Assembly: GCA_934096535.1 (NCBI GenBank)
Contig: CAKOMC010000001.1
Span: 1,255-65,254 of the forward strand
Source of the DNA: an uncultured Bacilli bacterium
Lineage (GTDB): Bacteria; Bacillota_I; Bacilli_A; RF39; UBA660
DNA: 64,000 nt
Direction of reading: 5' to 3'
The position numbers were made by a program, and so were the translations under genes. Shown here piece after piece: positions 2,793 through 58,936 of this stretch (within the stretch, counting starts at the first letter, position 1; each line of letters begins with the position of its first letter). The notes beneath the pieces were generated by a model, which did no database searches, was not told the origin of the DNA, and saw only the letters and a list, made by a program, of their open reading frames with translations.

Positions 2793-5700
2793 ATAATTTC
2801 ATCCTCCTCTTCTTCTAGAATATTTCCGTCTTCAGGAAATTCTAAATCATCCAAATCATCATCTTCGTCTTCTTCATCTTCTAAATAATCATCATCAGGT
2901 TCTTCTTTTTTTGATTCATTATTAGCATTCTCATTAACTTCATTTGTTAATTCTTTAATTTTTAAAGCATCAACTGGTTCATCATCAGTTTCCATTTCCT
3001 TTAAATCAACTAACTTATCGTTTTGATCTAAAATTTCAACATCTAAACCTAGAGCTTGGAATTCTTTAATTAATACTCTAAATGATTCTGGAATACCAGC
3101 TTCATCAATTGGTTTACCCTTAACTAATGATTCATAAACTTTAACACGACCCATAACATCATCGGCTTTAATAGTCATCATTTCTTGTAGGACATTTGCA
3201 GCACCATAAGCATATAGAGCCCAAACTTCCATTTCTCCGAATCTTTGACCACCAAATTGTGCTTTACCACCTAATGGTTGTTGAGTAACCATTGAGTAAG
3301 GTCCTGTACTTCTAGCATGAATCTTATCATCAACCATGTGATGAAGTTTTACCATATACATAACACCAACAGATACCCTATTTTCAAAGGCATCACCAGT
3401 ACGACCATCGTATAACACAGTCTTACCATCATGGGCAAGTCCAGCTTCTTCCATTTGTTCATAAATTTCATCTTGGCTTGCTCCATCAAATACTGGTGTA
3501 GCATATTTAACTCCTAAGTTTTTACCAGCCATACCTAAGTGTAATTCTAAAATTTGACCGATATTCATACGAGAAGGAACACCTTGTGGGTTTAAGACAA
3601 TATCCACTGGCGTACCATCTGGCATGTAAGGCATATCTTCTTCTGGTAAAATTAGAGAAATAACACCTTTATTACCATGACGACCAGACATCTTATCGCC
3701 GACTTGAATCTTACGCTTTTGAATAATATAAACACGAACTATTTTTGAAACACCAGCAGGTAGTTCATCAGAGTTTTCTTTAGTATAAACTTTAATATCA
3801 TGAACAATACCACCAGCACCGTGTTCTACTTTTAAAGAAGTATCTCTTACTTCACGAGTTTTTTCACCGAAAATTGCATGTAACAATTTTTCTTCAGCTG
3901 TTAATTCTTGAACACCTTTTGGTGTAACCTTACCTACTAAGATATCACCATCTTTAACTTCGGTACCAATACGAACAATACCATTGGCATCTAAGTTCTT
4001 ACGAGCATCTTCACCAACATTTGGAATATCTCTCGTAATTTCCTCAGGTCCTAATTTAGTATCACGACATTCAATATCATAGTGTTCAATATGTAGTGAT
4101 GTATAAACATCATCTTTAACTAATCTTTCATTTAAAACAACAGCATCTTCATAGTTATAACCATTACAAGTCATAAAGGCTACTAACATATTTTTACCTA
4201 ACGCAAGCTCACCATTTTTAGTTGATGGACCATCAGCAATAACTTCACCACGATGAACATTATCACCCTTCTTAACAATGGGATGATGATTAATAGTTGT
4301 AGCGGAGTTACTTCTTTCATAGTTGGCTAAATGATAAGTATCAGTGCCTTTAGCATTCTTAACAATAATTTTTTTACCATCAGCATAATCAACAACACCA
4401 TCAGCCTTAGCAATAATTGTTGAACCAGAATCTCTAGCGGCAATGTATTCAACACCAGTACCAACGATAGGAGATTCACAAGTTAATAGAGGAACAGCTT
4501 GGCGTTGCATGTTCGCACCCATTAAGGCTCTATGGGCATCATCATGTTCTAAGAATGGAATGCAACTTGTCGTAATTGATACAATTTGACTCGGTGCAAC
4601 ATCAATAAAGTCAACATCTTCACGCTTAACCATAACGGCTTCGCCATCTAAACGAGCAATTACTTTTTCATCTAAAATTTCATCACCATTCATATTAATA
4701 GCAGCCGATGCAATATTATAGTCTGCCTCTTCATCAGCAGTTAAATAAACGATTTCATCTGTTGCATGACAATTAACAACCCTACGATATGGAGTCATTA
4801 AAAATCCATATTCATTAATCTTAGCATAACTTGCTAAAGAAGTAATTAAACCGATATTTTGACCTTCTGGAGATTCGATTGGACAAATTCTACCATAGTG
4901 ACTTGAGTTAACATCACGAACATCCATACCAGCACGATCTCTGGCAAGTCCACCTGGCCCTAAAGAAGACAAACGCCTCTTATCAGTAAGTTCAGCAATT
5001 GGGTTAATTTGTTCCATGAATTTTGACAACTGAGAAGAGCCAAAGAATTCTTTTAAAGCTGCTGTAACAGGTCTAATATTAATTAATGTTTTTGGGGTAA
5101 TTGACTCAATTTCTTGGGTAGTCATACGCTCACGAATAACGCGTTCCATACGAGCCATACCAACATTGAATTGTTTTTGAACTAACTCCCCTACTTGTCT
5201 TACACGACGATTTGATAAGTTATCAATTTCATCATCGCGACCAATACCTTCTTGTAAGTCTAAGTAATAAGATACTGATGCATAAACATCTGAAATAGTT
5301 AAACGACGACTATCGATAGTTGGATCATTACCAATAATTTCAATAACTTTAGTTTCATCTTTCTTATTATAAACTTTAACTGTTTGAACTTTGTTATATT
5401 CGTCTAATTCTTCGTTAATCATTACTTCCTTAATGTTGTAACCATTACTAAATATTGGACGAACTTTTTCTAGAACATCTTTAGTTACTAAAGTACCAGT
5501 ACTAGCAACTACATTACCATTTTCATCTTTAATATCTTCAGCTAACGTGCAACCGATTAAACGATCTAAAACATTTAGTTTGCGATTTAATTTATAACGA
5601 CCTACTTTTGCCAAGTCATATCTAAATTTATCAAAGAATCTCGTAATTAACTGATTCTTAGCACTATCAAGAGTTGCTGGTTCACCTGGTCTTAATTTCT

Positions 5701-24263: not shown

Positions 24264-25268
24264 TTAAATATTTTTTCTTTCATAGTTCCAAGCACTACTT
24301 ACCATATCTTCTAGATTCTTTTGGCAAACAAAACCTAATTCTTCCTTGGCCTTACTTGGATCACTATAACAAGTGGCAATATCTCCTGCGCGTCTTTCGG
24401 CAATCACATAAGGCACATCAATTTTGTTAACTCGTTTGAAAGTTTCAACCATTTCTAAAACACTAACACCTTTACCCATACCTAGATTATAGATAAATAA
24501 ACCACTATGCTCTTTTTCTAACTTTTTTAAAGCTAAAACATGACCACGAGCTAAATCCATAACATGGATATAATCCCTAACCCCAGTACCATCTGGCGTA
24601 TCATAGTCATTACCATAAATACTTAAATGATCTAACTTTTTACTAGCCACACGGCAAATATAAGGCATTAAATTAGCAGGTATGCCGTTTGGATTTTCTC
24701 CTAAAAGACCAGAATCATGAGCACCAATTGGATTAAAATATCTTAAAATACAAAAATCATTCGTTTTATCAGCATTATATGTATCTTTAAGAATTTGCTC
24801 TACAAATAACTTACTAGTTCCATAAGGATTAGTTGTTCCACCAGTCTTACATTCTTCAGTAATTGGGACAACCTCAGGATCCCCATATACTGTTGCTGAG
24901 GATGAGAACACTAAATTCTTAACATCATATTCCTTCATAGCTTTAAGTAAATTTAAAACTGAAGAAACATTATTCATATAATATTCAATGGGTTTACTAA
25001 CAGACTCCCCAACAGCTTTATAAGCCGCAAAATCAATAACGCTAGTAATTTTATTTTCGCTAAAAATCCTTCTTAAAACCTCAATGTTTTGCATATCACC
25101 TTCATAAAAAGTAATTTCTTCATTAGTAATCATAAAAATTCTATCTAAAACATCTTTTTTACTATTAGAAAAATTATCTAAGCCTACTACTTCATAACCT
25201 GCTTTTATAAGCTCTACGCAAGTATGACTTCCTATATATCCACAACAACCTGTAACTAAAACTTTCAT
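24264..25268 (-). CDS. galE: UDP-glucose 4-epimerase
   Basis: The N-terminus MKVLVTGCCGYIGSHTCVELIKAGYEVVGLDNFSNS (Rossmann fold) and the YxxxK region in a 334-aa protein follow the GalE pattern. Confidence 0.88.
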   Translation of the reverse strand: MKVLVTGCCGYIGSHTCVELIKAGYEVVGLDNFSNSKKDVLDRIFMITNEEITFYEGDMQNIEVLRRIFSENKITSVIDFAAYKAVGESVSKPIEYYMNNVSSVLNLLKAMKEYDVKNLVFSSSATVYGDPEVVPITEECKTGGTTNPYGTSKLFVEQILKDTYNADKTNDFCILRYFNPIGAHDSGLLGENPNGIPANLMPYICRVASKKLDHLSIYGNDYDTPDGTGVRDYIHVMDLARGHVLALKKLEKEHSGLFIYNLGMGKGVSVLEMVETFKRVNKIDVPYVIAERRAGDIATCYSDPSKAKEELGFVCQKNLEDMVSSAWNYERKNI

Positions 25269-25705
25269 TTTTCTTCCTTCTTTCTAAAAACAAATACTTT
25301 ACTTAATATGTAGTTACCAACAATTACTAGGACTTGACTAATTAATTTCATAATCTTATCATTACCATGTAATATCGTTACGCCAATTCCCATGATAGCC
25401 ATATCTAGAAGTAATGTTGTAATTCTAGCTCCTACAAATGAAGTAAATTCTTTGATCTTATTTGTATTTTGGGATTCAAAGACAAACTTGCGATTAGTAA
25501 AATAAGCAAATAAAACGCCAGCAATCCAAGAAATAACATTGGCAACTTGTAACATTACAGCGTTATCGGGATTAATTATTGTATAAGTTAATCCATAGTA
25601 AACAATCAAACTAATTACGGTTGTCAATACTCCAAAAATCAAATAATTAATAATTTCTTTGTATTTTGTATACATTTTCTTTATCATAACAAACCTCGAT
25701 ATCAA
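25265..25705 (-). CDS. GtrA-family polysaccharide-synthesis flippase-like protein
   Basis: A 146-aa protein with four transmembrane helices in the GtrA pattern (INYLIFGVLTTVISLIVYY...). It overlaps galE. Confidence 0.7.
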   Translation of the reverse strand: MISRFVMIKKMYTKYKEIINYLIFGVLTTVISLIVYYGLTYTIINPDNAVMLQVANVISWIAGVLFAYFTNRKFVFESQNTNKIKEFTSFVGARITTLLLDMAIMGIGVTILHGNDKIMKLISQVLVIVGNYILSKVFVFRKKEEK

Positions 25706-25910
25706 TATACCATATATCTTCTGGTTTTTCCATTAGTTTAAATATTATTAAGGGTTATTTTTATAATTTTTTTAATATAAGTTTATGTTTTCTTCCCACC
25801 CTCCACTCCCAGAATAGTATGTTTTATAAAAATAGTATTAAAAATATATTTAATTTTAGATAACCAGCAATTACTTCAACTAAAAAAATTAGGTAATTAG
25901 CCTAAATTTT

Positions 25911-49419: not shown

Positions 49420-49451
49420 GCCTAAAGTTCGACAAATAAGGAGTTTTGACT

Positions 49452-50612
49452 ATGAAAAAGAAATATCTTATAACGAGGTTTATAATAATTTTAGGAACAC
49501 TTGTTCTCTCAAGAATAAATATAAGTAACAATAAAGACTTAGCAGTTTATATTGAAAACGAACTAAATTCATCAATTCCTGCTAGTAACGAGAATCTTTA
49601 TGTAAATAAAATAGATTGTGATAACAATGTAAATGCTTATTGGGATAATGATAAATGGGGTTTATTTATTAGTAACTTTTCTAAAAAAACTAAGTGTAAC
49701 TTATACTTTATCCATGATACTGAAAAGCCTTATTGGCAAATGGAAAGTGTTGAAAAAGTAAATGTTTTATCAACTGATATCTTGGAATTTAAAATTGCTG
49801 GCACCGATTCTTTAGGCAATGTCTCTTCTAATCTTGATATTAGTAATTTATCCTTCTATGTTAATGACGAATTAGAAAGTCCAATTAAAGTTGAACTTAC
49901 TAAGTTAGAAGAATTAAATAAAAAGATAACCTACTCTATAAAAGTCCACATGGTTGGAGGAGCCGGCAATCTAAAAGTTAAAATCAGTAGTGGTACTTTA
50001 ACTGATACTAGTAATAATCAAAATGCTGAAATAACTTTAGATACTGGAATTAATGTAAGTAAAAATCCGGCTAAAATTTTTAATTTTTATACCGATAAAT
50101 TTCCAGAAAATTCTGTCTGGCCGAAATACTATCGAAATCTATTAAATAATTATTACAATGATGTTACGCATAGTAATAATCCTACTCTAGATGAAATAGC
50201 TTCTGGAGATTATGATTTAATATTTTTTAATAATGATTGTTGGACTGTACCACCCGTAGCAAATTATATTTTTAGTTTGGGCATTAATGTATTTAGCGTT
50301 GGAAATGACAGCACTTCTGCTCTTGACATAATTAGCACATTTACCGAAAATAATAAAGTTGGTAACCATAAAAAAGTAATAAATAATGGCTTGACACACT
50401 ACTTACCTGATTTATTCGCTGGTAGCGAAGATAATTTAAATTTAATCAAATTTTCAGAAGAGGCTACTGTTCTTTACAAAAACGAAACTAACAACACAGA
50501 ATATGACAGTATTGGTTATATGATTAAAAACAATAAAATATGGTTGCATTCTCAATATATATCGAGTAATTATGTTATTCCTATGATACAATTTGCGCTT
50601 GGACAACTATAA
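49452..50612 (+). CDS. variable-family secreted/membrane-anchored protein 1 (conserved N-terminal module + divergent C-terminal domain)
   Basis: RBS AAGGAG lies 8 nt before the ATG at 49452 (the ORF-track start at 49446 is a TTG). MKKKYLITRFIIILGTLVLS is a signal anchor. The module is ...NKIDCDNNVNAYWDNDKWGLFISNFSKKTKCNLYF. Confidence 0.8.
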   Translation: MKKKYLITRFIIILGTLVLSRINISNNKDLAVYIENELNSSIPASNENLYVNKIDCDNNVNAYWDNDKWGLFISNFSKKTKCNLYFIHDTEKPYWQMESVEKVNVLSTDILEFKIAGTDSLGNVSSNLDISNLSFYVNDELESPIKVELTKLEELNKKITYSIKVHMVGGAGNLKVKISSGTLTDTSNNQNAEITLDTGINVSKNPAKIFNFYTDKFPENSVWPKYYRNLLNNYYNDVTHSNNPTLDEIASGDYDLIFFNNDCWTVPPVANYIFSLGINVFSVGNDSTSALDIISTFTENNKVGNHKKVINNGLTHYLPDLFAGSEDNLNLIKFSEEATVLYKNETNNTEYDSIGYMIKNNKIWLHSQYISSNYVIPMIQFALGQL

Positions 50613-50638
50613 TTAATTTATGACCAAAAAAGCAAAAT

Positions 50639-50663
50639 TTCATAGAACATATTACTCTATGAA
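50639..50663. repeat. recombination-site-like element (core CATATTA; one arm mismatch)
   Basis: Seen directly in the sequence. Confidence 0.65.
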
Positions 50664-50903
50664 AGCAGAAAATCGACATTTATTTTTAATTTATATGTTA
50701 ACTATATCACAGTTTTAAGGCTTTTAAAAGAGTCTTTTTTTATCTATTATAGTCATTTTTGTAGTCAAATAATTTTGGTATAAAGTCTGTAAATCCAAGA
50801 CTCTGTAGAAAAATTTGTAGTCAAATATTCACATTCTTTTGTGGTCAAAATTCATGGTCAAAATTTTTCAATCCTCAATAAATACGGGCTTTGCAAGCCA
50901 TTT

Positions 50904-50928
50904 TTCATAGAGTAATATGCTCTATGAA
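50904..50928. repeat. recombination-site-like element (core TAATATG)
   Basis: Seen directly in the sequence. Confidence 0.7.
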
Positions 50929-50960
50929 GCCTAAAGTTCGACAAATAAGGAGTTTTGACT

Positions 50961-52121
50961 ATGAAAAAGAAATATTTTATAACGGGGTTTATAATAATTT
51001 TAGGAATACTTGTTCTCTCAAGAATAAATTTAAATAACAATAAAGACTTAGCGGTTTATATTGAAAACGAACTAAATTCATCAATTCCCGCTAGTAATGA
51101 GAATCTTTATGTAAATAAAATAGATTGTGATAACAATGTAAATGCTTATTGGGATAATGATAACTAGGGTTTATTTATTAGTAACTTTTCTAAAAAAACT
51201 AAGTGTAACTTGTACTTTATCCATGATACTGAAAAGCCTTATTGGCAAATTGAAGAGGTTGAAAAAACAAGTGTTTTATCTACGGATATCTTTACTATAA
51301 AAATTTCTGGTAATGATTCATTAAGTAAAGTTACATCAAGTCTTGATACAAGTAGTTTATCATTTTATGTTAACGACACTTTGCAATCACCAATTAAAGT
51401 TGAACTTACTAAACTAGAAGAATCAAACAAAAAAATCATCTACTCTCTCAAAGTCCATATGATTGGTGGCGAAGGAAATCTAAAGTTAAAAATTAATAGT
51501 AACACTTTAACAGATAATGAAACCAATCAAAATGATGAAATTACATTAGACACAGGCATTACTGTAAGTAAAAATTCGGCTAAAATCTTGCATTATTATA
51601 GTACAAACGAAACTGAGGCTAGTATTCACTCCAACAAAGAAACACTAGATAAATACTATAATAATGTTACACATACAAACAACTATACACAAGAAAAAAT
51701 CATTTCCGAAAAATTTGATTTAGTATTTTTAAACTCTTCCGTTTGGGGAGTCCCTTCTACAGCAAACAATATTTTTAGTGCCAATATAAATTTGCTTAGC
51801 CTTGGCAATGATACAAATGACTATTTGGATATAATTAAAACCAGTGCTTCCAGCAAGTCGTCGGTAAATTCTTCGATGAAAGTATTGAATAACAAACTAA
51901 CATATTATATGCCTGATTATATTGCAGGCAGCACCGACAGTCAAAGACTAATTAAATTTAATAGCGATGTTAATATTTTATATAAAAATACTACAAATGA
52001 TGTCGAATATGATTCTATTGGTTACATTGAGCAAAATGGAAGAACTTGGCTACATTCTCAAATTGCTGAAAGCCAATATTACATTATTCCAATGGTGCAA
52101 TTTACGCTTGGTCAACTATAA
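50961..52121 (+). pseudogene. variable-family gene 2, interrupted by a single in-frame TAG (TGG to TAG in the conserved W of the ...WDNDN-W-GLFISNF motif)
   Basis: ORFs 50955-51167 and 51210-52121 are in the same frame. The stop codon at 51165-51167 replaces the Trp codon that genes 1 and 3 carry at the equivalent position (gataaatgggg vs gataactaggg). The downstream reading continues GLFISNFSKKTKCNLYFIHDTEKPYWQ... Confidence 0.7.
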
Positions 52122-52144
52122 TATTATTAGTTAACCTCTTATTT

Positions 52145-52169
52145 TTCATAGAGCTTATAACTCTATGAA
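52145..52169. repeat. recombination-site-like element (core CTTATAA)
   Basis: Seen directly in the sequence. Confidence 0.7.
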
Positions 52170-52409
52170 AGCAGAAAATCGACATTTATTTTTAATTTAT
52201 ATGTTAACTATATCACAGTTTGAAGGCTTTTAAAAGAGTCTTTTTTTATCTATTATAGTCATTTTTGTAGTCAAATAATTTTAACTTAAAGTCTATAAAC
52301 TCAAGGCTTTGTAGGAAAATTTGTAGTCAAATATTCACATTCTTTTGTGGTCAAAATTTATGGTCAAATTTTTATAAGCTAAGGTAAGCACCGACTTCGA
52401 AGGCCATTT

Positions 52410-52434
52410 TTCATAGAGTTATAAGCTCTATGAA
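52410..52434. repeat. recombination-site-like element (core TTATAAG)
   Basis: Seen directly in the sequence. Confidence 0.7.
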
Positions 52435-52465
52435 GCCTAAAATTCGTTAAAAAGGAGTTTTGACT

Positions 52466-53629
52466 ATGAAAAAGAAATATTTTATAACGGGATTTATAAT
52501 AATTTTAGGAATACTTGTTCTATCAAAGGTAAGCATAAATAGCAATAAAGACTTAGCAGTTTATATTGAAAACGAACTAAATTCATCAATTCCTGCTAGT
52601 AACGAGAATCTTTATGTAAATAAAATAGATTGTGATAACAATGTAAATGCTTATTGGGATAATGATAATTGGGGGTTATTCATTAGTAACTTTTCTAAAA
52701 AAACTAAGTGTAACTTGTACTTTATCCATGATACTGAAAAGCCTTATTGGCAAATTGAAGAAGTTGAAAGAACTAGTGTTTTATCTACGGATATCTTTAC
52801 TATAAAAATTTCTGGTAATGATTCTTTAAGTAAAGTTACCTCAAGTCTTGATACAAGTAGTTTATCATTTTATGTTAATGATACCTTGCAATCACCAATT
52901 AAAGTTGAACTTACTAAATCAGAAGAATTAAATCAAAAAATCACCTACTCTCTCAAAGTCCATATGGTTGGTGGCGAAGGCAATCTAAAGTTAAAAATTA
53001 ATAGTAACACTTTAACAGATAATGAAACCAATCAAAATGATGAAATCACATTAAACACAGGCATTACGGTAAATAAAAATCCTGCAAAAATCATGCACTT
53101 CTATGACTCCAGTTTTACTAGTGCATCCTATCAACTTAACTTTTATAAAAATCTCCTAGATAATTATTATAAAAATGTAACTCATAACAGTAATCCCTCA
53201 TTAGATGAACTAGCTTTAGGAAATTATGACTTGATTTTCTTTAATAATGGTTGCTGGACAGTTCCAACCGTAGCAAATTATATTTTTAGTTTGGGCATTA
53301 ATGTATTTAGCGTTGGAAATGACAGCACATCTGCCTTGGATATAATTAGCACATCTATCACAGATAGTAAAGTTGGTAACCATAAAAAAGTAATAAATAA
53401 TGGCTTGACATACTATTTATCTGATTTAATTGCAGGTGGCGAAGATAATTTAAATTTAATTAAATTCGTTGATGAAGCAACCGTACTTTATAAAAATAAT
53501 ACAAACAACATTGAATACGACTCACTCGGTTATATAAAGAAGAACGATAAAACTTGGCTCCACTCGCAATACATTTCCAACAAATATATTATTCCCATTA
53601 TCCAATTTACTCTTGGCGAACTTAAGTGA
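52466..53629 (+). CDS. variable-family secreted/membrane-anchored protein 3 (close paralog of gene 1)
   Basis: RBS AAGGAG lies before the ATG at 52466. The N-terminal module is near-identical to gene 1. The C-terminal half (…FFNNGCWTVPTVANYIFSLGINVFSVGNDSTSALDIIS…) is a paralog of gene 1. Confidence 0.8.
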   Translation: MKKKYFITGFIIILGILVLSKVSINSNKDLAVYIENELNSSIPASNENLYVNKIDCDNNVNAYWDNDNWGLFISNFSKKTKCNLYFIHDTEKPYWQIEEVERTSVLSTDIFTIKISGNDSLSKVTSSLDTSSLSFYVNDTLQSPIKVELTKSEELNQKITYSLKVHMVGGEGNLKLKINSNTLTDNETNQNDEITLNTGITVNKNPAKIMHFYDSSFTSASYQLNFYKNLLDNYYKNVTHNSNPSLDELALGNYDLIFFNNGCWTVPTVANYIFSLGINVFSVGNDSTSALDIISTSITDSKVGNHKKVINNGLTYYLSDLIAGGEDNLNLIKFVDEATVLYKNNTNNIEYDSLGYIKKNDKTWLHSQYISNKYIIPIIQFTLGELK

Positions 53630-53857
53630 TTTTAAGAAAAAATACTTGCTTACTCAATAAAACTAGCGTATTATATCCTATATCTTATAAACATAATAAG
53701 TCATAATAGTTTTTTTCCTTACTATATATAGAACTAAAACTAGTAAAAAGTATGTTAAATTAAAAAAGCATACTTTTTTTTATCATTAAATAAAACTTGC
53801 CAATTTAAAATTAACTCTTTATCTTCATAGCCAAAATCAATATAAATTAATAACTTT

Positions 53858-53873
53858 GGGGTGGGTGGGTGGG
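53858..53873 (+). other. G-quadruplex-forming motif GGGGTGGGTGGGTGGG
   Basis: Four G3+ tracts separated by single T loops, in a genome that is otherwise about 25-28 % GC. It lies in the convergent intergenic region after the tandem variable-gene cluster. Confidence 0.6.
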
Positions 53874-53929
53874 AAGTAATACTAAACAAAAAGAAAATTA
53901 AAAAAAGATTAACTAATAATCAAGCTAAC

Positions 53930-55357
53930 CTAATTTTTAATCTTAATAATCTTATGTCTATTATCCCATAACTTAAGCAACTTATTTATAACAACACTAC
54001 CTAATATAAAAACTGTAACATTAATAAAATAAGTATATCGAGGCTGAATTTCTATTAACATATACACTAAAGTATTCGTAATAAATAAAATATAAAAATA
54101 AAATAAATTACTATTTAAAATATCTTTTTTCTTTAAATACACTCCTACTACTAAACCTAGTATCATAAAACCATAAATAACTTTATTAACCCCTGATATT
54201 AAATCTTCTAAAGTTTTATAAGCTACTTCTAGTCCTAGTACTTTAATCTTCTTATCATTATAAATACCACTACTTGATTCTAAAGAACCATTTAAAACAA
54301 AATTATTAGTCTTACATAAAAGAAGTTTACCTACTTTATATGGATTATTAATTCTTTCTTTAATAACTTCTAACTCTCTAGTTTCGTCCCCTAAATAGAT
54401 TTCATCATTGGTATCATATCTACCACAAGTATCGGGATTAGTACCTAAAACAAATTTCCATAAGGGATTATTATTTTTAAGACCATCTTCATTAATATTA
54501 CTCTTAACTAAATATGTAGAAACTCCTATATTTACTAAAGAATAGAAACAAACAAAAATACTACATCTTACTACTGTAATTAACCATTTTTTACTTTTAA
54601 GAATATCTTTTTTAGTTAATTTTAAAACTCTATATAAAAGATAACTAAAAATGATAACAATACCTTCGGGTCTTAAAACATTAGAAAGTCCTAAAATGAT
54701 ACCAGCAATAATATAATTTGATAATTTATCTTCTTTATTATTTTTTAAAAGAAAATAAATACTTAAATAACTAAGCAAAGCACTTAAATGATGATTAGAA
54801 ATAACTGTTGCTGAATATATGGAAAAGGGAAATACAGCATATAAAGCGGCTGTTATTCTAGCGGGAGTTTCTCCTACTAACGCTTTAACGGTCTTATAAA
54901 TAAAATAAGTTAAACCAATTTCATAGAAAATATTTAAAAGTTTTAAAAATAGCTCGCTATTAACTATTTTTAACATTAAGGCCTCATATAAAACAAAACC
55001 GGTCTGATAAGGCCACATTGCAAAGTAACCACTCTTACTAAAACTGTAGTCTCCTAATTTAAACTTTCTTGCAGCCTCTAACAAAACCGCAAAATCACTA
55101 GTCTGGGGGACATTAAATACAATAATACCCACAATTCTAACTAAAGTTGCTATTAAAAGTAAATAAAAAACAAAGTGTTTTCCTTTATACTTTCTAATAA
55201 TAAAAATAATGCTAACTATTAGAAATAGTCCTAAAAGTAAATTATTACTAATAAGAAAGACTAAACTTAAAAATACGGGAATAACAAGACTAACATTCAT
55301 AAAAAACTTATCTAATTTAAAATTATTTTTAAATATATTTAATTTATTTTTTAACAT
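53930..55357 (-). CDS. polytopic membrane protein, putative GT-C glycosyltransferase (ArnT/PMT, GT39-like)
   Basis: About 11 transmembrane helices over 475 aa, with an N-terminal region resembling the GT39/PMT_2 fold (…YFAMWPYQTGFVLYEALMLKI…ITAALYAVFPFSIYSATVISNHH…). Confidence 0.45.
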   Translation of the reverse strand: MLKNKLNIFKNNFKLDKFFMNVSLVIPVFLSLVFLISNNLLLGLFLIVSIIFIIRKYKGKHFVFYLLLIATLVRIVGIIVFNVPQTSDFAVLLEAARKFKLGDYSFSKSGYFAMWPYQTGFVLYEALMLKIVNSELFLKLLNIFYEIGLTYFIYKTVKALVGETPARITAALYAVFPFSIYSATVISNHHLSALLSYLSIYFLLKNNKEDKLSNYIIAGIILGLSNVLRPEGIVIIFSYLLYRVLKLTKKDILKSKKWLITVVRCSIFVCFYSLVNIGVSTYLVKSNINEDGLKNNNPLWKFVLGTNPDTCGRYDTNDEIYLGDETRELEVIKERINNPYKVGKLLLCKTNNFVLNGSLESSSGIYNDKKIKVLGLEVAYKTLEDLISGVNKVIYGFMILGLVVGVYLKKKDILNSNLFYFYILFITNTLVYMLIEIQPRYTYFINVTVFILGSVVINKLLKLWDNRHKIIKIKN

Positions 55358-58911: not shown

Positions 58912-58936
58912 TTCATAGAGTATACAACTCTATGAA
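58912..58936. repeat. recombination-site-like element (core TATACAA)
   Basis: Seen directly in the sequence. Confidence 0.7.

Follow-up and report, generated by a model that had tools for sequence, protein, structure and literature searches.

To our knowledge, only a small number of functional motifs of the G-quadruplex (G4) type have been described in bacteria, and uncultured gut lineages with very AT-rich DNA have contributed almost none of them. In Neisseria gonorrhoeae, a G4 lies upstream of pilE beside a conserved promoter, with a small RNA (sRNA) starting inside it; this G4 acts in cis and in an orientation-dependent manner, its donors are silent, and it is missing from strains that do not vary (PMC3547852). 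The HPG1 and HPG2 elements of E. coli, described as a 'G-quadruplex-hairpin-duplex switch', are multi-copy intergenic G4 motifs (16 and 7 copies) that often lie nearer to gene 3′ ends and between convergent genes, with an adjoining C-rich partner, and a terminator-like or regulatory role has been proposed for them (PMC5100583). A third E. coli element, REP325, limits read-through in a partly Rho-dependent manner and also stabilises the upstream mRNA (bioRxiv 10.64898/2026.03.23.713779). Here we analysed a 64-kb window (the whole 64,000-nt stretch of contig CAKOMC010000001.1, from an uncultured human-gut Bacilli lineage), in which a G4-capable motif, GGGGTGGGTGGGTGGG, is found at positions 53858–53873 of the + strand, within a conserved GC-rich island of about 25 bp at the 3′ side of a membrane glycosyltransferase gene. 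Its position and its linkage to this gene, a hypervariable surface-glycosylation gene of the GT39/PMT_2 type, give good support for the island being a GC-rich element that belongs to the 3′ boundary of the gene. The gut element is newly recognised and single-copy, and belongs to an already known kind, the conserved intergenic G4-capable or GC-rich boundary motif.

The resemblance to HPG1 and HPG2 is one of position, as these have long loops (GGGAGAGGGTTAGGGTGAGGG) and a C-rich partner in cis, whereas the gut element is single-copy, has loops of 1 nt, has no cis partner and does not conserve its G4 capacity. REP and BIME sequences are likewise GC-rich extragenic elements situated just past genes, and the gut element is like them in this respect, but unlike a REP it is non-palindromic, unrepeated and without a GTAG/CGTC-type tag.

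The motif has the layout GGGG-T-GGG-T-GGG-T-GGG, that is, four runs of at least three G separated by short loops, as in the (G3+N1-7)x4 definition of G4 motifs. Its core, GGGTGGGTGGGTGGG, equals the 'G3T' oligonucleotide, which two reports describe as a parallel, monomolecular quadruplex whose thermal stability is unusually high (PMC4880955, PMC3592437). On the minus strand, which is the sense strand of the glycosyltransferase gene, the G4-capable core reads CCCACCCACCCACCCC, and the full conserved island, as delimited by alignments, profile matches and the constraint estimate given below, is TTACTT-CCCACCCACCCACCCC-AAAG at 53854–53879 (minus strand). The motif was unmatched elsewhere in the window even when two mismatches were allowed, and none of 100 dinucleotide-preserving shuffles of the window contained a match. 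No other (G3+N1-7)x4 or (C3+N1-12)x4 motif is present in the window, whichever strand is read, and the GC content of this DNA is 28.8% (27.6% locally around the motif). When 16-nt stretches were screened for a count of 11 or more G, or of 11 or more C, only two places in the window qualified, the motif itself (53858) and one at 25795, within a possible degenerate second copy (site 2) that is discussed further on. The background scan was extended to 329 kb, comprising the window and the loci of related lineages. In this set, sites with at least three G3 or C3 tracts and loops of 1–2 nt were found only as orthologues of the motif, and an nhmmer profile of the island matched orthologous sites only (E values from 1e-10 to 3e-15), with one clear copy per locus and no further copies. 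An earlier note on this DNA had recognised a perfect parallel-G4 motif at this place, had judged a chance origin very unlikely and had located it in the convergent gap between the last gene of a paralog cluster and a glycosyltransferase-like gene; each of these statements was confirmed, and the motif does not belong to a repeat dispersed in this lineage.

The gap between the two convergent genes, at 52460–53629 (+) and 53930–55357 (−), measures 300 nt. The first of these is an open reading frame (ORF) that comparison identified as the last, motif-proximal member of a series of tandem paralogs; it lies outside the conserved unit and adjoins the motif only in the window species and in one related locus, L011. 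The second encodes a GT39/PMT_2 (GT-C type) membrane glycosyltransferase (Pfam PF13231, 8.4e-13; homologues named 'glycosyltransferase family 39'). Sequence inspection and folding placed a terminator-like hairpin on either side of the motif. At 53745–53781 (+), 3′ of the last paralog, an A/T-stem hairpin is followed by a T-run and is potentially bidirectional, and at 53900–53932 (−) an intrinsic terminator-like hairpin of approximately −6.6 kcal/mol with a U7 run overlaps the glycosyltransferase stop codon. The island begins 20 nt past this U-run, while from the paralog side the motif is 229 nt beyond the stop codon and 76 nt past the hairpin. A structured RNA at the motif was rejected, since Rfam at gathering threshold gave four tRNAs in the window and none at the motif, and the spacer folded no better than shuffled sequences on either strand (z-scores of −0.65 and 0.01). 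A promoter search near the motif returned only weak consensus matches, at chance frequency. The source organism uses the standard genetic code, and a small ORF across the motif (MGGWEV...) was rejected because its length and stop position differ between lineages.

For comparison we used ten contigs of the same species (L001–L010), eleven related loci (L011–L021) and fourteen more loci obtained through homologues of the glycosyltransferase; the relatives include 'Mycoplasma sp. CAG:956' and metagenome-assembled genomes from Hadza and other gut metagenomes. The window, the ten contigs of the same species, and L011, L013, L014, L015 and L166–L171 all have the island 3′ of the glycosyltransferase gene. 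Read in the sense direction of this gene, its cross-lineage consensus is TTAYTT-(CCCN)2-3CCC-(T)TAAAG. In this direction it reads TTACTT-CCCACCCACCCACCC-TAAAG in L011, TTACTT-CCCACCCGCCCACCC-TTAAAG in L013, TTATTT-CCCACCCACCCACCC-TTAAAG in L015, TTACTT-CCCCCCCACCC-TTAAGG in L014, TTATTT-CCCACCCACCC-TTAAAG in L166–168 and TTATTT-CCAACCCACCCACCC-TTAAAG in L169–171. Four G tracts are thus present in the window, L011, L013 and L015 (the single substitution of L013 sits in a loop, with all four tracts intact), and only three in L014 and L166–168, the latter seen in three independent assemblies, while in L169–171 the first tract is broken and the four-tract capacity is weakened. The last three groups nevertheless keep the island flanks and the remaining tracts, and conservation of the non-G/C flanks TTAYTT and (T)TAAAG equals that of the tracts themselves.

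In L013–L015 and L166–L171, the downstream neighbour (arrangement D2) is not a paralog, but a co-directional gene of 712–733 aa without recognisable family or similarity to the paralogs, and hence the motif is linked to the glycosyltransferase gene rather than to the variable cluster. This hypervariable gene is the sole constant neighbour of the motif, and the island is kept behind two unrelated upstream modules (U1 and U2) and beside unrelated downstream gene sets, the paralogs (D1) and D2. A hairpin (−6.6 to −11.4 kcal/mol) with a run of T5–T7 precedes the island by 8–20 nt in 7/7 motif-bearing haplotypes, an architecture that holds although the U1 and U2 sequences are unrelated. Conservation within the region is lowest in the DNA 5′ of the G-tract, which is wholly different between D1 and D2; in D2 strains the island lies approximately 35 nt upstream of the −35 box of the next gene (TTGCTA-17-TATAAT), and no promoter was found on this downstream side in the window species.

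The island was invariant in the 11 sequences of the window species (the window and the ten contigs), with a single-nucleotide polymorphism (SNP) present 5 nt outside it. These sequences were also identical in unit number, which differs between deep haplotypes only, and the within-population unit variation that marks phase-variable simple repeats was not seen. Between the window and the glycosyltransferase alleles of L013, L015, L166 and L169, identity at four-fold degenerate sites was 0.57–0.60, and only 0.17–0.33 of the G/C four-fold sites of the window were retained in those alleles. Because neutral G/C retention is this low, the neutral expectation for the approximately 12 G/C positions retained in the island is roughly 1e-6. 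Within 60 nt on either side of the island, the sequences are diverged or non-homologous. These comparisons give good support to the view that the island is under purifying selection, is single-copy in the lineage and is independent of the tandem paralog cluster. They support equally well that selection preserves the island and not its four-tract quadruplex capacity, which would be a property of the arm retained by the window species: haplotypes with three tracts keep the rest of the island, so that a four-tract G4 is not required. Despite a strong mutation pressure towards AT, a perfect G3T motif has persisted here under purifying selection that can be measured.

The surrounding locus is a mosaic. 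Alleles of the glycosyltransferase gene are about 85% identical, compared with 92–100% in the flanks, and the gene carries U1 and U2 as swappable modules of its 3′ end and terminator. Two downstream haplotypes of approximately 60 nt (D2a and D2b) are about 16% apart, and 4/4 combinations of U1 or U2 with D2a or D2b exist. Across lineages (L011–L021 and L165–L178), five or more different sets of genes occupy the DNA that flanks the glycosyltransferase gene on its 3′ side. The D2 loci are 97–100% identical over more than 2 kb downstream of the motif, with gltX at approximately 90–96% and the glycosyltransferase gene at approximately 85%, and counting them as seven independent lineages was rejected in view of these near-identical flanks and the mosaic of haplotypes. 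The D2 segment itself (the 712–733-aa gene and the genes that follow) is 98–100% identical between lineages in which gltX is about 92% identical, which suggests recent exchange of this segment between otherwise diverged lineages. At this locus, strains exchange alleles of the surface-glycosylation gene, its 3′ modules and its neighbours, and the island lies at the border of this hypervariable gene. The locus is likely to be relevant to how this abundant lineage of the human gut interacts with phages and with its host.

We tentatively propose, with limited confidence, that the island may act as the 3′ boundary or insulator of the glycosyltransferase transcription unit. Because the terminator that precedes it is weak, some polymerases probably read through. 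These would transcribe a C-rich, G-free tract that would be unique in a C-poor transcriptome (the sense strands of the window are C-poor by GC skew), and polymerases arriving from the opposite direction would meet the G-tract on the non-template strand. Either event would be expected to curb transcription across the boundary or to protect the 3′ end of the mRNA, similar to the action of E. coli REP elements as partly Rho-dependent terminators and stabilisers in 3′ untranslated regions (3′ UTRs). Short C-rich, G-free RNA tracts in a C-poor transcriptome, such as the C-rich seeds of Firmicute sRNAs of the RoxS/RsaE type and Rho rut sites, would be targeted preferentially by G-rich partners or by RNA-binding factors specific for C, and a factor of this sort may bind the read-through RNA. 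The gut tract differs from those seeds and rut sites in that it is not predicted to be notably unpaired, and in that its only candidate partner, the leader of the gtrA operon (see below), is not co-conserved. A transcription barrier, which the earlier note also considered, comes close to this proposal and is viable, but as a boundary that belongs to the glycosyltransferase gene and not to the paralog cluster.

Several observations weigh against this proposal. The estimate of constraint is based essentially on one deep comparison (the window clade versus D2) together with the U1/U2 contrast, in a locus that is mosaic and recombining, and the island is absent 3′ of other glycosyltransferase lineages (L012/L165, L172/173, L016–L021 and L174–178). 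In the read-through RNA, the predicted probability of being unpaired is 0.25–0.58 for the island, which is similar to its flanks. The distance from T-run to island varies between 8 and 20 nt, more than would be expected if island and terminator were tightly coupled in mechanism, and a Rho signature was not found in a search of the 64-kb window, which says nothing of the whole genome. Finally, the conserved non-G/C flanks TTAYTT and TAAAG suggest sequence-specific recognition, for which a generic block of GC does not account.

The quadruplex itself could be the functional entity, with the G-strand folding, either as RNA or as DNA in the course of transcription or replication, into a roadblock or switch and the three-tract haplotypes having lost this function. 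The sequence is that of a very stable parallel quadruplex of the G3T type, and four tracts, as in the window, L011, L013 and L015, are the inferred ancestral state. Furthermore, the lone substitution in L013 spares the tracts, the GGGTGGGTGGGTTGG of L169 could still form a weaker or vacancy-type G4, and the environmental arms and phage copies described below also have four tracts. We consider this explanation unlikely, however, as three of the seven haplotype groups lack four intact G3 tracts and yet keep the flanks and the other tracts, as the non-G flanks are conserved like the tracts, and as the version of site 2 found in a sister lineage is not G4-capable. That the island and its flanks are kept while quadruplex capacity fluctuates advises caution in inferring function from a G4 pattern.

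The mosaic structure brings up a second alternative, in which the island is a recombination junction or hotspot of the glycosyltransferase locus, either passively as the longest stretch of perfect homology or actively through G4-promoted breaks. The existence of all four combinations of U1 or U2 with D2a or D2b indicates that junctions fall within the ~25-nt island. Identity between L013 and L169 jumps at the island from approximately 0.85 to 0.97–1.00, and between the window and L013 it drops from approximately 0.8 to approximately 0.2 just past it; the turnover of gene contents in the 3′ flank and the near-identity of D2 segments in lineages with diverged gltX, as given above, fit as well. 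A conserved island within diverged DNA would nonetheless host the resolution of exchanges automatically, without need for an active role, and neutral use as a junction leaves the preservation of the sequence unexplained. In addition, the junction between L013 and L014 lies about 200 nt inside the gene and not at the motif, the divergent zone reaches about 60 nt past the motif, and lineages without the motif show equal turnover of their flanks. We regard a junction role as improbable.

Outside the gut lineage, a 21-mer of the gut island (TTAYTTCCCACCCNCCCACCC) has at least 120 exact matches in JGI metagenome contigs (L022–L141). These matches have flanking sequence in common. Among the matches listed, nearly all are from sediment-type samples with a GC content of about 55%, often with two or three copies per contig. 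The host of this sediment repeat is a bacterium, since one contig (L112) carries hrcA-grpE-dnaK-dnaJ with a CIRCE operator. In order, the repeat consists of a T-run, a C-arm (TTAYTTCCCACCCTCCCACCC), a covarying hairpin, an inner stem of G-rich and C-rich strands, a second hairpin and, 50–150 nt downstream of the C-arm, a G-arm (TTGGGCGGGTGGGTATGGGAAGAAAAACA). The elements are 83–203 nt long (most 110–200 nt), occur two or three times per 10 kb (for instance in L066, L112 and L106), and show no orientation bias relative to genes. The hairpin that starts 3–4 nt after the C-arm has four pairs, all with double compensatory changes in 21–32 of 98 sequences. Among the matches listed, the T-run is at a fixed distance of 10 nt upstream of the C-arm in 77/119 copies. 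A strict hairpin with T-run before the C-arm was found in 13/119 copies against 0.5–2% in controls, a 6–20-fold enrichment, but as this is a minority it was rejected as a general rule. Both arms are G4- or i-motif-capable, with mismatches at the loop positions of the arm-arm duplex, and Rfam gave no match in 11 of these environmental loci. Being modular, palindromic, multi-copy and orientation-independent, the sediment repeat is like the REPs, and it also closely resembles HPG1 and HPG2; it is apparently a large, REP/MITE-like intergenic family that seems to be undescribed.

The gut element has the C-arm of this family, as the exact 21-mer is common to both. A weight-matrix scan of the window did not find a partner G-arm 50–150 nt downstream of the gut motif, and a candidate decayed G-arm (GGCTATGAAGATAAAG, compared with GGGTATGGGAAGATAAAC in the environment) was rejected, as it ranked 251 in the half model and 478 in the full model. 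The gut sequences have no covarying hairpin in the sediment register, and multi-copy dispersal was not seen, with one copy per locus in the 329 kb. A T5–7 run does occur 8–20 nt before the island in gut copies, but as the terminator tail of the upstream gene. As judged from its sequence, the gut element is a solitary arm that shares sequence with the sediment repeat and not a member of that family. The exact match suggests that a wider class of boundary elements made of G-tracts and C-tracts may exist.

Such a shared sequence would also be expected if the island were a functionless relic, either the decaying solo arm of a REP/MITE-like element or a (CCCA)n microsatellite, which persisted by chance and was spread by recombination. 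The identity over 21 nt with an abundant environmental repeat arm is consistent with this origin, as are the variation between three and four units, which slippage would give, the complete loss of the motif in several lineages, and the location in a recombining locus with haplotypes that are not fully independent. We nevertheless think that a relic has little likelihood, since retention of the approximately 12 G/C positions is highly improbable at the measured neutral rate, since the flanks have diverged or been replaced on both sides and the island has not, and since no length variation was seen within the species.

Recognition of the island as double-stranded DNA, by a sequence-specific regulator, nucleoid protein or insulator protein acting independently of strand, could explain why the TTAYTT and TAAAG flanks are conserved besides the tracts. 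The position of the D2 island, with its ~35 nt to the next −35 box, is activator-like, and site 2 overlaps the likely promoter or start region of gtrA. However, the four-base insertions and deletions alter the spacing between the two conserved flanks, a change that could not be accommodated by a rigid binding site for a protein, the window species is without a promoter on that side, and no candidate regulator was identified, so we give this possibility a low probability.

Copies of the arm were also found in phages. Matches to a 17-mer in viral sequences, at 23 loci, are at approximately chance expectation, with the exception of one phage with four copies (L146, which is the same as L157 and L043). 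In this phage, one module is present in four intercistronic regions (at 1017, 1551, 3034 and 3292) and consists of a small hairpin (CTCCTTAAATGGAG), GGGTGGGTGGGTGGGAA, 4–8 nt, AAGGAGG and ATG, such that, in the sense direction, the G4-capable motif comes just before the ribosome-binding site; the source contig is about 155 kb with a GC content of 0.46. No integrase was found beside the phage copies, which have terminase, primase-like and methyltransferase genes as neighbours, nor was there a second direct copy bounding the D1 segment, and on these two grounds the core of an attachment site of a phage or an integrative and conjugative element was rejected. Separately, a 5-kb IMG/VR contig (L142, GC 0.38) has the 17-mer at 4894–4910 and 5021–5037, within an inverted repeat of about 100 nt near the end of what is a small element encoding a primase-like protein, and shares a 22-mer (TTCCCACCCACCCACCCTAAAG) with the gut locus L011. 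One may speculate that the (GGGN)3GGG-AAR-TAA arm is a cross-phylum module of nucleic-acid punctuation in sediment bacteria, phage and gut bacteria, in which switching between duplex, hairpin and quadruplex would set the boundaries of transcription or translation, with the gut copy exapted to insulate the glycosyltransferase gene and possibly acting in trans on the gtrA leader as well; we hold this to be a long shot.

Site 2, at 25792–25810 on the minus strand, reads GGGAGTGGAGGGTGGGAAG on the sense strand of gtrA and was noted by profile search and alignment as a possible degenerate second copy, with a weak link to the island (site 1). It is located about 105 nt upstream of the gtrA start, just after a conserved −10-like sequence (CATACTATTCT), at the start of the leader of an operon that comprises gtrA (25265–25687), an epimerase gene, a gene for a 147-aa protein, a GT2 (GtrB-like) gene and a gene for a 488-aa protein, down to about 21217. 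In the sister lineage L179 the site is GTGGGTGGTTGTGGGAAGTAAT, which is not G4-capable, and three other GtrA lineages (L180–183, L186) lack it. Site 2 is the best non-orthologous match of the island profile, with nhmmer E values of 8.4 in the window and 0.27 in L179. It has 22/32 identical positions with site 1, compared with 23/32 for a coding site, and the 10-mer common to both sites is equalled in 19% of shuffles. With its similarity not above background, site 2 was rejected as a robust second copy and kept as a weak candidate. A large inversion between the two sites was rejected too, as the intervening 28 kb holds housekeeping genes (obg, frr and ruvA), and is also contradicted by the gene orders of other lineages.

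The C-strand of site 1 has site 2 as its best predicted partner in the window after its own antisense, with a predicted duplex of −34.3 kcal/mol, compared with −24.6 kcal/mol for the next best and a background of −4.7 ± 3.3 kcal/mol over the whole window. This would allow RNA pairing in trans, between a C-rich read-through 3′ UTR and the G-rich leader of the gtrA-epimerase-gtrB transcript, to coordinate two parts of a single glycosylation route that uses lipid-linked sugars. Complementarity is retained in L179, including the non-G flank GGGAAGTAAT, and both genes belong to surface glycosylation of the undecaprenyl-phosphate-sugar (Und-P-sugar) type. Complementarity is automatic, however, if both sites copy one motif, and the resemblance of the two sites does not exceed background. 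Site 1 is more widespread than site 2, which is missing from L180–183 and L186, and because the sites are not co-conserved, pairing with the gtrA leader was rejected as a general function; in any form, we consider it very improbable.

The earlier note had further considered it conceivable that the motif initiates recombination in the adjacent cluster, as the pilE G4 does, and had described the cluster as variable. The latter proved correct. The cluster (49446–53629) consists of three tandem paralogs that are complete in length and have individual starts, Shine-Dalgarno sequences and upstream regions, and alignment of the window with L001–L009 revealed clustered SNP tracts due to gene conversion between the paralogs in natural populations. 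A segment of approximately 220 nt is swapped one repeat period (1505 nt) apart, at 52762–52981 in L002 and L004 and at 51257–51476 in L008, with alleles that match the sequence of the other paralog, and further tracts are found at 49943–50253 and 50976–51176; conversion is reciprocal. Paralog genes that appear split have an in-frame TGG-to-TAG nonsense allele (51166, and 52671 in L002 and L008), which is moved or repaired by conversion likewise, and slippage in poly-G was rejected as the cause of the split genes. The conversion tracts occur in all three paralogs at 0.9–3.9 kb from the motif and do not cluster near it.

The pilE system and the gut locus are alike in having a noncoding motif of G3 tracts beside a gene-converting family. 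In N. gonorrhoeae, the G4 with its cis-acting gar sRNA lies upstream of an expression locus that has a −10/−35 promoter, with promoterless silent pilS copies as donors, whereas the gut motif follows the last paralog and its terminator-like hairpin, has chance-level promoter matches on the poorly conserved 5′ side of the G-tract, and adjoins paralogs that are complete genes. Nor does the motif track the variable locus, as it is present in D2 strains next to the unrelated 712–733-aa gene. It is therefore extremely unlikely that the tandem paralogs undergo conversion initiated by a G4 of the pilE type: a G4-capable motif does sit beside a cluster with evident gene conversion and transfer of a nonsense allele, but it is conserved where the cluster is not adjacent (L013–L015, L166–L171), no conserved promoter starts transcription in the G-tract, silent cassettes and concentration of tracts near the motif were not seen, three haplotype groups keep the rest of the island with a lost or weakened capacity for four tracts, and tandem repeats of ~85–90% identity convert without a dedicated initiator. 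Of the earlier interpretation, the textbook G4 of non-chance origin, not dispersed in the lineage and next to a variable cluster, thus stands, and the role as initiator for that cluster does not.

Some minor features of the window are recorded here. Upstream of each paralog, pairs of 26-nt inverted repeats flank a segment of 226–238 nt (49142–49167/49394–49419, 50639–50664/50903–50928 and 52145–52170/52409–52434). The arms have the form TTCATAGAG-N7-CTCTATGAA, with N7 loops that are reverse complements within a pair and different between pairs, and a single copy of the arm is present at 58912–58936. Within the inner segments, AGTCAA/GGTCAAA motifs (TTGACT-like on the opposite strand) recur, and a like pair of inverted repeats precedes a gene for a glycine-rich-domain protein in L180/L181 (at 884 and 1149). 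These pairs are possibly invertible-promoter-like switches; the 3–8 assembled contigs available for each site showed no flipped orientation, and a scan of window proteins, including 10 further ones, revealed no recombinase. Finally, two sporulation-associated families were detected in the window, a SirA-like protein (PF10747, 48632–49054) and a Germane domain (PF10646, 41836–42747), hinting that genes related to sporulation or germination have been retained in this small-genome, Mycoplasma-like lineage of gut Bacilli.

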